8,747 bases of DNA. Origin: a virus (Duplodnaviria; Heunggongvirae; Uroviricota; Caudoviricetes). Below the pieces are notes generated by a model that worked only from the letters and a program-made list of their open reading frames with translations, did no database searches and was not told the DNA's origin. Location: the IMG/VR virus record IMGVR_UViG_2778261151_000014. One strand, given 5' to 3'. Positions 182 to 3,750 of the stretch are shown one piece after another (the stretch's first letter is position 1; every line of letters begins with the position of its first letter). The translations under genes and the position numbers were made by a program.

Positions 182-2179
182 TTAAATGGTTTTTTTACGT
201 CTGTTCTGTTCCAGAATATCCAGCGAACGATTCAGATATTCATCACGTTCAGTTTCGTATTCATCATCACGCTCCTGATTCTTCACCCGTTCCGTGTTAC
301 CCACAGGCCGGAAAATACCAACAACCCGTGATTCTGGTGCTTCAGGTTCGGCTATCTGCGGCAGCAGCTCTGCCACTTCCAGTGCATCCATTTGTTTCTG
401 TGCCTTAATCGCTGCTTTCGTCGCAGATTTCAGTTGTTTCTGGCGGCGGCGATATTCACGGCCTGCCGCAGCATCATTAAACGCAACAGGTGCCAGACAT
501 TCCGCTTCACAGATAAACCGACCGTCCAGGGTGTAGCAATAAACCGTGCTGTGTAACTGTTGTGGATCAAATCTGACCACAACTTTTTTCACTCCGGCAT
601 TCATTAACGCCATGTTGTAATAAACGTTTTTCGCGCCTTTAAGGGAGCCGCCAACTTTAAGCGCAAACTCGCCTTTACGTGAAACGTTCACCGCCTCGGC
701 AGGCAGTAACAGCATCCGTTTTTGCTCTTCGGTAGGCTTACGCACAATCGTTCTGGCGTATTCATGCTCAAAAACGTCATCAAACGAAAGTTTGCCTCCG
801 CACATTTCTGTTTCACGGCCTGTTCTGGCATTGAACATCGCCACACCTTCGGCAAGGGTTTTCAGAAACAGCTCTGCATCAACAGCACGGTCGCCATAGT
901 TATCAGGTTTTGCCTGCGGATTTGGCCCCGTATATGCGCCAGCCAGTGCCGGATGCTTATCAACGTATTCCTCAAGCCCACCAACACCGAAAGCACGTTC
1001 AACAGGTTTTGCCTGGCCCCAGCCTTTACCGGCAACAACGCTTGTCCAGTGCATTTTCGCACCCATCAGTAAAAACAACCCCTTTGGATCGTCCTCTTTT
1101 ACCTTAAAGCGGTAGCGATTGGGCGCGCCTCCCGTCAGCCATTTATTCGCAGCACCACGGGTGTTATCAATGGTGATGTGAAAATCCTCCGGGATACCGT
1201 AGCGAGTCACAACATCCATGAACGAGAGGCGAATTGAATCAATGTTCTCGCTCACATCGCAGCGCCAGCCCAGAATTTTTCGGGTTTTCACATCCTGCCA
1301 GAACCATGTTTTCGGGCGGATCACATCACCGTTAAACCAGCGTACAAAGACGTTATGCAGATAACCGTCGCCGTTGATCCACTGCATGGCGTCCAGGTGT
1401 TCCACAGTTCGCTGCTGTGCCGGTATCAGATGCATCAGTGCATGTTCACCTTCACGACAGGCAACAACCATTGCCTCGTCCAGTTGCTGAATCCGGCGAA
1501 ATGCCGTGGCACGGGAGGGAATACTCCAGCCATGCTCGCGGGCTGCCAGTTCCAGACGCTCATAACATTTGCGGAAGGCGGGTTTTTCCGGTCGCAGATA
1601 ATCTGCAATCAGAAACTGCCAGGCATCCTCGTCAAATTCACTTTTGTGAACATTGCGACGAGATGCACCACGTCCATCAACAAGTGCAGCCGCCCAGTCA
1701 GGCTTCGCAAACTTCTGTACCTGGTAATACTTGTCCCGCAAAGTGGATGCGCTGACCTGATAATGTCCTGCAACGGTCGCAAAAGCCGTTTTTGTTGAAA
1801 TCCCCTGGTTCAGCATTTCGTCTGCAGCCTGAACCGCAGGCAACCATTTTTCAGCAAGTCTGCGCTGGGAATCGCTGGCGTTATCCCATTTGCTCCACAG
1901 TGCCTCACGATCGTAATCGTGCGCTTCCAGCGTGGGGCGGGCGATTTCAAAATACCCCTGGCTTGTTTCTATTTGCTCAGATTTTAATAACAACTCAGCA
2001 CGTGCTGCCGCTGGTAGAACTGATATATGAAATTCCAAAGCCTTTGAACCCGTACGCTTGCGACGTAGTTCTGGATGATTGGCTGCAAGCTTTTCAAGAT
2101 TGCGGCGAATACTCACCTCATGTTTAGGAAAGCATGACATTCCTACGCATTCTTGCGCTGTTACCCAATGGGTTAACAT
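182..2179 (-). CDS. A: Mu-family DDE transposase A (D108-type N-terminal domain)
   Basis: Track ORF 182..2209 starts at TTG. The in-frame ATG at 2177..2179 gives [11 protein letters not shown]..., which aligns with the Mu A start MELWVSPKEC and lies just after the ner stop (sequence ATGTTAA). From about residue 70 onward the protein is near-identical to Mu A as I recall it (..[37 protein letters not shown]..). Catalytic DDE contexts are intact ([23 protein letters not shown]) and the C-terminus is ...EQNRRKKTI. The first ~65 residues differ from Mu. Confidence 0.93.
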
Positions 2180-2400
2180 GATGTTTTCTCCATATACCGA
2201 GAAGGCCAAATCTGGGCTGGTTCCATATCCAAATATCTAGCAATGATTGCTTCGTATCGTGGTATATGGCAGCGAAATACGTTACGCATAGTGTCAGGCT
2301 TTAAGCCTGCCTCTCTGGATAATTGAGATAGTGTCTTCCCCTTCATACGAACAGCAGCCTTTATCTGCTCTGCGTGCCAGTCTTGGTTTTTTGCTGACAT
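2173..2400 (-). CDS. ner: Ner-family DNA-binding regulator of early transcription (Ner/Nlp family)
   Basis: 75-aa ORF with ATG at 2398..2400 and RBS AAGGA upstream. Shares motifs with Mu Ner ([18 protein letters not shown]) at roughly half identity. Sits immediately upstream of A on the same strand. Confidence 0.88.
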
Positions 2401-2569
2401 TCTGCGATCCTTACTCTCTTAACGTTTTCGGTAACTGATACCAGCTACCGCTATCGGGAAAAACGATAGCGCAGAAAAATGCGCATTTCAAGAGCTATGC
2501 GCATTTTTATTTTAACCAATGCAAATCAAAGAATTCTGTAAAATTCTTTATATAACAGAGAGATTGAGC
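2401..2569. promoter_or_regulatory. Divergent early/repressor control region (operators, candidate Pe and Pc promoters)
   Basis: Intergenic region between divergent ner (-) and c (+). Contains perfect palindrome AAATGCGCATTT (2477..2488), further copies of GCGCATTT(TTAT) at 2497..2510 and 2603..2614, inverted repeat CGCTATCG-N7-CGATAGCG (2449..2471) and inverted repeat AAAGAATT-N6-AATTCTTT (2528..2549). Candidate Pe on minus strand: -35 TTGAAA (plus 2486..2491), 17-bp spacer, -10 TATCGT (plus 2463..2468). Promoter assignments are inference. Confidence 0.55.
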
Positions 2570-3178
2570 ATGACAGGTGAAAAAGAAAGCAAAAATACAG
2601 AGCGCATTTTTATGCCCTCGGAAATAATGCGTTTCAAGGAACGCCTTGAAGAGGCAATGAATGGAGAATCAAGCCGGGCGTTTGCAGCTAAGTGCGGACT
2701 TTCTGATGGGGTTATCAGAAACTACCTGTCTGGCAAGACATACCCGTCTTTAGATCGATTAGCACAAATAGCCTACGCAACAGGGCGTCCAATAGAGTGG
2801 TTTATCCAAAGTCAGAGCATGCCAATGGTTGAGCATAAAAATACTCAAGAGAATAAAAATCCTCAACCTGACCGCAGCACATTGAAAACTAAACTGATCG
2901 CAATTGTCGAATTGTTAGAGGACAAGGAACTGCATTCTGCGATTGAGTTGTTCAGAAAGAAAGGATTTGAAGCTCTTATGCCTGAGATTTTTTCTTCCGA
3001 TGATTCCATCCAGGCTGATTTGCAAGGTATTTCGCAGCAAACCTTACAAACAGCCAAAATGCTTGAATCATTACCAACAGATACTCGTAAAGAGATTTTG
3101 TCAAAGTATGGTATTTATGAACAGGAAGGTCTTGTAGCTCCTTCACAAGAACCACAAGATGTAAAAAAAGCCGTATAA
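2570..3178 (+). CDS. c: Mu-family immunity repressor c (heteroimmune, non-Mu DNA-binding region)
   Basis: Track ORF starts at ATG 2519, but ATG 2570 (MTGEKESKNTERIFMPSEIM) aligns with the Mu c start (MKSNFIEKNNTEKSIWCSPQEIM as recalled) and has a weak GAGAG upstream. C-terminal ~100 aa resemble Mu c (..KEILSKYGIYEQEGLVAPSQEPQDVKKAV). Central region (..SSRAFAAKCGLSDGVIRNYLSGKTYPSLDRLAQIAYATGRPIEWF..) looks like an HTH and differs from Mu c. Start is uncertain; ATG 2612 is another candidate. Confidence 0.85.
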   Translation: MTGEKESKNTERIFMPSEIMRFKERLEEAMNGESSRAFAAKCGLSDGVIRNYLSGKTYPSLDRLAQIAYATGRPIEWFIQSQSMPMVEHKNTQENKNPQPDRSTLKTKLIAIVELLEDKELHSAIELFRKKGFEALMPEIFSSDDSIQADLQGISQQTLQTAKMLESLPTDTRKEILSKYGIYEQEGLVAPSQEPQDVKKAV

Positions 3179-3344
3179 CAACCATGAACCAGCTAAAACA
3201 TACTTCACCTCACATAATCACACATGTAACATACCTAAACGGCATGAGCTGATTTGTGATATGAGTCATTTGGTTACAGCCTGGTTGTTATCGGTTTTGA
3301 ACGTTTTTTGAAGCTGTTATTGAAATGATTTGCAGTGTTTTTGT

Positions 3345-3750
<406 letters not shown>

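Follow-up and report, generated by a model that had tools for sequence, protein, structure and literature searches.

Gene layout and relatives of the locus

The 8,747-nt viral record IMGVR_UViG_2778261151_000014 (Caudoviricetes), which in its full length is called the window here, is the left end of a Mu-like prophage that lies in reverse orientation in bglG, adjoining phoU-pstBACS. We analysed its immunity region, in which the gene for the c repressor diverges from ner and the transposase gene A (Table 1), and in which, judged from the DNA and its relatives, the copies of a GCGCATTTTT repeat very probably indicate where the c repressor of the prophage binds. The left end of the prophage is at position 3517 (…CGTACTTCAAGTGAATCAATACA up to the junction), within bglG, and the start of c is the same in the Prokaryotic Genome Annotation Pipeline (PGAP) annotation of two Escherichia coli genomes.

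The c repressor carries an HTH_3 domain (PF01381; 30.8 bits against a cut-off of 23), as do its relatives. In alignments, its first ~100 residues are without counterpart in the c proteins of Mu, D108 or SfMu, residues ~108-202 align with Mu c, and the last ~40 amino acids are nearly identical to it. A search by sequence for the closest solved structures gave only weak helix-turn-helix matches (E > 0.3). The gene is a mosaic: from about 3045 onwards its DNA is 94% identical to Mu, including the part for the C-terminal …QEPQDVKKAV tail, and the c homologues that fall outside the clade of the window (L076, L083-L088) have unrelated tails of the …KKAG type. Ner, encoded by the first gene of the early operon, belongs to the HTH_35 family (PF13693; E = 1.9e-25) and is 40-42% identical to the Ner proteins of Mu and D108 by alignment. 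Transposase A is nearly identical to MuA from residue ~75, and its first ~70 residues (I-alpha, ~1955..2179) are a third variant compared with Mu and D108. The HTH_3 domain of c is not homologous to the I-alpha of the prophage's own transposase (HTH_Tnp_Mu_1, residues 10-144), and with no shared fold the repressor and the transposase cannot read sites in the same way.

At the DNA level, a blastn search down to about 65% identity returned no phage record matching window positions 2100..3045; the similarity to Mu begins only at about 3045 and that to D108 at about 3158. On this evidence the immunity region is neither that of Mu nor that of D108. A sequence-only reading of the region had taken D108 as its frame of reference and proposed a comparison with the mapped D108 operator and Ner sites. 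Given that the region is without D108 similarity and that c has an HTH_3 domain instead of a winged helix, the mapped D108 operators are not transferable; the control-region DNA is dissimilar, and positional analogies alone are usable.

Of 5,426 complete E. coli genomes only 2 have the region, and its chromosomal location differs between them; a near-identical window type is found in E. coli and Shigella. More distant homologues of the c N-terminal domain share the divergent layout, with A and ner on one strand and c on the other. They include the IMG/VR contig L076 (66% identical to the window's domain), the six assembly contigs L083-L088 (43-59%) and prophages of Photorhabdus, Xenorhabdus and Yersinia (40-55%), and such homologues are also present in many Orbaceae genomes. 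Our lineage comparisons cover 15 lineages, the window and 14 relatives, which are treated as a window-type group and a Photorhabdus/Xenorhabdus/Yersinia group (the second group). L076 and L083 are particularly informative: the helix-turn-helix of their c proteins and the helix of their Ner proteins are identical to those of the window, so that an element they lack is a poor operator candidate, and the spacer 2515..2569 is only 22/55 identical (about 40%) between the window and these two lineages.

Table 1. Genes, promoter elements and proposed protein-binding sites of the immunity region, with site offsets from OA among relatives
Feature	Position	Strand	Sequence or product	Description	Offset from OA in relatives
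Transposase A	182..2179	-	Mu-type transposase	HTH_Tnp_Mu_1 and the usual Mu transposase domains (Pfam)	
ner	2173..2400	-	75 aa, HTH_35	Pfam and alignment	
Candidate Ner operator	2429..2450	.	CGGTAACTGA-TA-CCAGCTACCG	22-bp near-palindrome, 9/11 pairs	
Pe -10	2463..2468	-	TATCGT	relatives: TATTGT, TATATT, TATAGT, TACAGT	
OA	2469..2484	-	GCGCATTTTTCTGCGC	16-bp T5-centred dyad; arms GCGCA/TGCGC, 5-N6-5; arm pairs 5/5	
Pe -35	2486..2491	-	TTGAAA	same place in relatives: TTGAAT, TTGCAA, TTTACA, TTGACT, TTGACG	
OB	2499..2514	+	GCGCATTTTTATTTTA	orientation opposite to OA; beyond the -35, the two centres 30 bp apart	+30 in window-type group, +29 in second group; one or the other in 14/15 lineages; inverted
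c repressor	2570..3178	+	202 aa	HTH_3 (residues 35-78), linker, Mu-c-like central domain, Mu-identical tail	
OC'	2585..2600	-	CTGTATTTTTGCTTTC	weak, half-site-like; 17 bp from OC; close relatives CTGCATTTTT, L083 GCGCATTTTTGTCAAA	+116 in window-type group (L083, L085, L086, L088), +105 in second group (L066, L009); opposite strand
OC	2602..2617	+	GCGCATTTTTATGCCC	c codons 11-16 (ERIFMP); centre 133 bp from OA; arm pairs 4/5	+133/134 in six window-type lineages, +122/123 in second group
OD	2831..2846	-	GAGTATTTTTATGCTC	c codons 88-93, linker past the helix-turn-helix; centre 362 bp from OA; arm pairs 4/5	+342 to +363 in window-type group, +289/290 in second group
OD'	2849..2864	-	GAGGATTTTTATTCTC	18-bp tandem duplication (2831..2848 / 2849..2866); arm pairs 4/5	

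A dyad array on the early promoter and inside c

All five elements that the sequence-only reading had listed are present, with one coordinate off by one. They are the perfect 12-bp palindrome AAATGCGCATTT (2477..2488), a second copy ATGCGCATTTTTAT (2497..2510), a third copy GCGCATTTTTAT, which lies at 2602..2613 and not at 2603..2614, and the inverted repeats CGCTATCG-N7-CGATAGCG (2449..2471) and AAAGAATT-N6-AATTCTTT (2528..2549). The TTGAAA that it proposed as the -35 of the early promoter (2491..2486, minus strand) is indeed promoter-like and shares 3 bp with the 12-bp palindrome. The core GCGCATTT occurs four times in the 8.7-kb window against an expectation of 0.99, all inside 133 bp (2477..2609). 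Four occurrences were reached in 2 of 200 shuffles, and a 10-mer present three times within 240 bp (2401..2640) in 6 of 2,000, which places the repeats beyond chance. The proposal that the GCGCATTT(TT) repeats are repressor operators, one of them on the early promoter, is supported as very probable.

The same reading had missed that the first two copies form a perfect 12-nt inverted repeat (AAAAATGCGCAT-N10-ATGCGCATTTTT), that a GCGCA-N6-TGCGC dyad lies at 2469..2484, and that further copies lie beyond its interval at 2831..2846 and 2849..2864. The repeated unit is a 16-bp dyad with two 5-bp arms around a T5-rich 6-bp centre (consensus GCGCA-TTTTTn-TGCGC), and the three GCGCATTT copies correspond to the sites OA (better read on the minus strand), OB and OC. 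When OA was used as a probe over 2485..3178, the best match was reached in 0 of 300 shuffles and the third-best in 1 of 300.

OA coincides with the only promoter-like site of the region, the minus-strand early promoter Pe, whose transcription start is predicted near 2456: OA together with base 2485 is exactly the 17-nt spacer of Pe. The stretch 2469..2484 reads GCGCA-GAAAAA-TGCGC and is 16/16 identical in L076 and L083, in which the flanking -10 and -35 are kept. The 12-bp palindrome, which had been put forward as an operator unit, is formed where the right arm of OA meets the -35; L076 disrupts it and reads AAATGCGCAATT there. The arrangement at Pe extends to 13 of the 15 lineages, in which the lineage's own T-tract-centred dyad forms the spacer of the best ner-directed promoter, as in Photorhabdus (TTGACT, TCGTGTTTTTATGCGAA, TATATT) and L085 (TTTACA, TGCGAATTTTTATTCGC, TATATT).

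Conservation of the sites across lineages

For an unbiased scan, each lineage's promoter-spacer 16-mer (OA) served as the probe from OA to the end of c. Site sequences differ across the 14 related lineages, and copies recur at near-fixed offsets from OA (Table 1); the third-best match to the OA probe was reached in 0-4 of 300 shuffles for 14 of the 15 lineages. The Photorhabdus, Xenorhabdus and Yersinia relatives have full 5-N6-5 dyads at all four positions, and perfect dyads occur among the relatives. L076 holds the perfect dyad GAGCATTTTTATGCTC at the OB position, and OD reads GAGCATTTTTATGCTC in both the E. coli copy SE11 and L076. OC', conserved at only 7/16 positions in a three-way comparison, is tentative. 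The duplication that creates OD' is present only in the window's own lineage (its close copies) and not in L076 or L083; the two 18-bp units (2831..2866, in the c linker) are GAGCATAAAAATACTCAA and GAGAATAAAAATCCTCAA, encoding EHKNTQ and ENKNPQ. An alternative description of the array, in which a half-site GCATTTTT recurs with variable spacing (AAAAATGC-N5-GCATTTTT at OC; N18 at OA/OB), was set aside because of the full dyads at all four positions in the second group.

Within c, the sites are conserved more closely than the protein would need. The four ERIF codons of OC are identical in L076, against 23 of 56 same-residue codons overall. OD is the top conserved 16-mer of c among the window, L076 and L083 (15/16, rank 1 of 405, mean 8.9), and it lies in a hypervariable linker. 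Among the 564 16-mers of the second group it is within the top 5 (14/16; mean 7.1). The OD of the window group codes for EHKN(T/A), read in frame 1 in the linker; that of the second group codes for (L)AEKCE, read in frame 2 in a helix of the helix-turn-helix. The two protein positions are non-homologous. When we counted residues conserved across all compared sequences, 7 of 8 codons within OC and OD were identical in the window group, against 16 of 72 outside (p = 0.0005); the corresponding figures for the second group are 5 of 8 within the sites and 13 of 72 outside (p = 0.012). These counts indicate that the intragenic sites are constrained at the DNA level. The copy within the 5' end of c that the sequence-only reading had pointed out is thus a genuine site and not a coding accident, with codon identity beyond what the protein needs.

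The orientation of the T5 centre is the same in every group, OA(-), OB(+), OC'(-), OC(+) and OD(-), which could reflect directed intrinsic bending. By eye, an intragenic GAAAAAACACGA element also recurs in Orbaceae loci (Gilliamella, Orbus and Frischella).

Candidate readers of the dyads and of the Ner palindrome

The arms of the dyads co-vary with the recognition helix of c, five helix variants going with five arm variants among few independent groups. The helix SDGVIRNY is paired with GCGCA arms, SDTVIRNY with GCGAA or TCGAA, SEAVIRNY with GCGTA, SEAALRTY with TCGTG/TGCGA and SDKTLRDY with GCGGA. The varying helix positions 1, 2, 3 and 6 (D/E, G/T/A/K, V/A/T and N/T/A/D) presumably align with the base-contacting positions of the 434 repressor. 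Two lineages separate the candidate proteins: L084 has the Ner helix and the palindrome type of the window, together with a different c helix and different dyads, and L083 has an A I-alpha only 60% identical to the window's, together with the same c helix and an identical OA. On this basis we propose c as the reader of the dyads and Ner as that of the palindrome at 2429..2450. The 5-N6-5 geometry would suit a dimer of the HTH_3 N-terminal domain, with half-sites 11 bp apart.

The 22-bp palindrome at 2429..2450 is, by its placement and conservation, the likely Ner operator. It covers about +7 to +28 of the predicted Pe transcript, ends 29 nt upstream of the ner ATG, and lies almost wholly outside the interval that the sequence-only reading had considered. 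In 7 of 8 lineages the best 22-bp palindrome is found at an offset of 29-30 nt from the ner ATG; it was reached by 0-18 of 2,000 shuffles in six lineages and by 126 of 2,000 in L086. The palindrome also tracks the Ner helix, in that the window, L076, L083 and L084 share the helix and all carry CGGTAnCnG…CnGnTACCG. In D108, a perfect 11-N8-11 inverted repeat (CCGTGAGCTAC-N8-GTAGCTCACGG), which we take to be the Ner site mapped by Tolias and DuBow and by Kukolj et al., lies 25-54 nt upstream of ner, a position equivalent to the 29-50 nt seen here. The palindrome of the window differs from it in sequence and has 10-bp arms and a 2-bp centre (9-N4-9 in relatives) where D108 has 11-N8-11. The dissimilarity of the candidate to the Ner sites of Mu and D108 in arms, spacing and sequence is as expected for about 41% protein identity.

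Proposed mechanism

We consider it probable, taking the explanation as a whole, that the dyads are c operators that silence Pe, with looping through the distal sites and with Ner acting at 2429..2450. Dimers of c on OA and OB would exclude RNA polymerase from Pe, so that ner-A(-B), and with it transposition, would be silent. From OC'/OC (c codons 6-16) and OD(/OD') (codons 88-99), c oligomers would bridge to OA/OB in a looped complex that strengthens the repression of Pe. The oligomers would form through the Mu-c-like C-terminal half; in Mu, the C-terminal half of c mediates oligomerisation. Ner would act at its separate element just downstream of the Pe start. It is plausible that the looped complex also limits the expression of c (negative autoregulation), given the position of OC and OD inside the transcription unit of c. 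Between the two groups the OC offsets are shifted by one helical turn (10-11 bp), and L079, whose c has a Peptidase_S24 C-terminal domain, carries OA and OB only; both observations are consistent with looping but are not proof of it.

Several points weigh against this explanation or against parts of it. The assignment to c draws on position, symmetry and co-variation across ~5 independent specificity groups, and the I-alpha domain of the transposase is a possible second reader of the same sites. The link between the distal sites and the Mu-c-like domain comes from a single contrasting lineage, L079; a search for further S24-type relatives returned L079 alone (n = 1). In the window the right arm of OB is degenerate, OC' is weak and the right arm of OC matches at 4/5 positions, and in L083 the second site is at +19, not at +30. 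The Orbaceae were left out of the comparison, as promoter and site calling failed in their very AT-rich DNA. A bridge of ~90-100 bp between OB and OC needs a bend, yet a consensus scan of the 15 lineages found no consistent IHF site, the window having one match with a single mismatch at 2524..2536. A search for a plus-strand promoter for c gave nothing recurrent across lineages and, in the window, a weak TAAAAT (2539..2544); as no c promoter could be placed, autoregulation is a conjecture. Two Photorhabdus loci, L008 and L066, have at about 2390..2420 a plus-strand promoter-like TTCGCA-17-TACAAT/TATTAT that stands back-to-back with Pe, its -35 inside OA. It is a possible c promoter in that group, and the window is without an equivalent.

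Alternative explanations

The sequence-only reading had put forward AAATGCGCATTT and the two 8-bp-arm inverted repeats as candidate operators; that they are the operator units, shared by c, Ner and IHF as in D108, we regard as very unlikely. Its elements are all present and perfect in the window, 2449..2471 is identical in the four closest copies, and the AATCAAAGAATTC (2524..2536) that the repeat at 2528..2549 abuts is one mismatch from the IHF consensus. Nevertheless, in L076 and L083, whose DNA-reading helices are the same, neither the 12-bp palindrome nor the left arm of 2449..2471 is intact, and 2528..2549 is broken throughout. As an operator, 2528..2549 was rejected: it is symmetric in the window only, with C at 2532 in three close copies and asymmetry already in SE11, N1286 and L075, it is absent from L076, and it overlaps the weak -10-like TAAAAT. 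The repeat at 2449..2471 is probably not an operator either, its left arm being lost in both L076 and L083 and its right arm consisting of the Pe -10 and the edge of OA. At least one perfect 8-bp-arm inverted repeat arose in 107 of 2,000 shuffles of the 169-bp spacer, a marginal result (about 5%), and the region has no D108 similarity. The motif search across related prophages, which that reading had itself suggested, thus found the T5 dyads conserved in placement and the 8-bp-arm inverted repeats not conserved.

The T5 dyads might instead, or also, be a transposition enhancer made of I-alpha sites of transposase A, like O1/O2 of Mu, and not be read by c alone; this we hold to be unlikely, although it has several observations on its side. 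Transposase A retains an I-alpha of the Mu type, which implies that there is an enhancer somewhere, and the analysis turned up no further conserved motif. The GCGAA-arm lineages L084, L085 and L086 have an A helix variant, (A/E)PNIRRK, in common, and OA and OB lie 1003-1048 bp from the left end at 3517, where the Mu enhancer is about 1 kb from the L end (PMC3145075). However, OA is identical in the window, L076 and L083 despite their differing A helices (EVSIRRN, DVNIRRH and AVNVRRH) and I-alpha domains that are 60-80% identical, and in L088 the GCGAA arms go together with a further A helix variant. Dyads whose half-sites are 11 bp apart match what a helix-turn-helix dimer would bind; the I-alpha sites of Mu are not known to be dyads of this kind, and a site that fills the promoter spacer is in the classical position for a repressor. 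It is highly improbable, and largely refuted, that the repeats are not protein sites at all but by-products of AT-rich composition, of coding constraint (ERIF, EHKN) or of recent duplication. In favour of this, OC and OD are coding, many homologues keep an ERIF-like peptide, a tandem duplication gave rise to OD', and T-runs are common in this DNA. Against it stand the shuffle tests, a codon identity in excess of what the protein requires, the differing frames and non-homologous protein positions of OD between the groups, and lineage-specific arms that match the intergenic sites. Least credible to us is the suggestion that the dyads act as RNA hairpins, terminator- or attenuator-like with 5-bp stems and a 6-nt loop, and not as DNA sites. 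A terminator scan does flag GCGCATTTTTCTGCGC followed by TATCGTTTTT on the minus strand, but OA lies upstream of the predicted Pe start and so is not part of the early transcript, each stem has no more than 5 bp, most copies have no T-run after them, and copies stand on both strands in a fixed pattern. There is also no match to an RNA family, an Rfam scan of 2300..3550 having returned sub-threshold chance hits only.

Comparison with known systems

The region shares several features with that of Mu: c diverges from ner-A-B at a distance of about 1 kb from the same left end, the C-terminal half of c is homologous, and the operators form several clusters, of which one is on Pe and another extends into the 5' end of c. 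The Mu counterpart of the latter is a set of CTTTTCAGTA-type repeats (about 889..929) inside the first 22 codons of a 196-aa c open reading frame. The RefSeq c of Mu (L003) has 174 aa and starts at 863, and the homologue P0020 (196 aa) begins MKSNFIEK…, which corresponds to a TTG start at 929; with that start, the leftmost CTTTTCAGTA-type operator repeats of Mu are also inside the 5' end of c. The Mu enhancer overlaps O1-O3 and is made of MuA-binding clusters (PMC3145075). The prophage differs from Mu in that its c has an HTH_3 domain, whereas Mu c and MuA I-alpha have a winged helix in common. Its operators, which are 16-bp dyads, bear no relation to those of Mu in sequence (no DNA match), and T5 dyads of this kind are absent from the spacers of Mu and D108. 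A further conserved site lies about 260 bp inside c here, and our scan of the 15 lineages found no consistent IHF site between the clusters. Compared with D108 (and SfMu), the prophage has a mosaic of the D108 kind, in which the departures from Mu are confined to c, ner and the first ~70 residues of A; its c repressor and operators are unrelated to those of D108, and its Ner is about 41% identical.

The HTH_3 domain, the short arms, the AT-rich centre and an operator inside the core promoter recall the lambdoid Cro/C1 repressors (434, P22 c2 and lambda cI, with dyads of 14-18 bp). In contrast to these, the C-terminal half of c is Mu-c-like and not of the lambda S24 type (except in L079), the phage replicates by transposition, and the sites extend over about 400 bp, mostly inside the repressor gene, instead of forming a tight OR1-3 cluster. 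Loops are formed by lambda OL-OR, by the flanking sites of 186 CI and by the OD of TP901-1 CI. The auxiliary operators here are likewise about 100-360 bp from the promoter-proximal ones, with a spacing conserved among relatives; the difference is that looping is only proposed here and that the distal sites are inside the repressor's own coding sequence. We judge the array to be a genuine regulatory feature: a c/Ner switch of the Mu type that uses a repressor of the Cro/C1 type and whose operators, conserved as an array, lie in part within a gene. In the searchable literature we found no account of such an immunity type, and this is no more than absence of evidence.

In the window, an open reading frame at 3421..3714 (minus strand) is the N terminus of BglG fused to read-through of the Mu end. 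Of the other E. coli copies, SE11 has the prophage beside hisP and N1286 within the aga phosphotransferase system operon, unrelated sites that are as expected for insertion by transposition. In L006 (S. flexneri SFBU1023) and L007 (E. coli ECMA0423), at about 980..2330, a prophage of this type carries an IS3-family element that interrupts ner and whose open reading frames have HTH_Tnp_1 and rve domains, with the operators and c intact. L083 has about 500 bp between ner and A (594..1122), with a 153-aa open reading frame of no known family on the opposite strand; the window is without such an insert.

Implications

Mu is the model for the immunity of transposing phages and its coupling to transposition, in which repressor and transposase share a DNA-binding domain and compete for the operator/enhancer. 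It is possible, though we would put it below an even chance, that a close Mu relative, with the same ends and the same transposase past residue ~75, has swapped the DNA-binding domain of its repressor for an unrelated Cro/C1 fold, and that its widespread family keeps a repression complex of ~290-380 bp whose distal anchors, inside c, have been re-created at different codons and in different frames at similar distances. If so, repression would no longer work through a repressor and a transposase that read the same operator/enhancer by homologous domains. The predicted sites, comprising the promoter, four to six repressor sites and the Ner site, would describe a third Mu immunity type of E. coli and Shigella together with its Photorhabdus, Xenorhabdus and Yersinia relatives, and the array offers a clear example of regulatory DNA sites that constrain a protein-coding sequence. 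The combination of near-Mu transposition machinery with a repressor of another fold would be a natural swap in which to ask whether domain sharing is needed.

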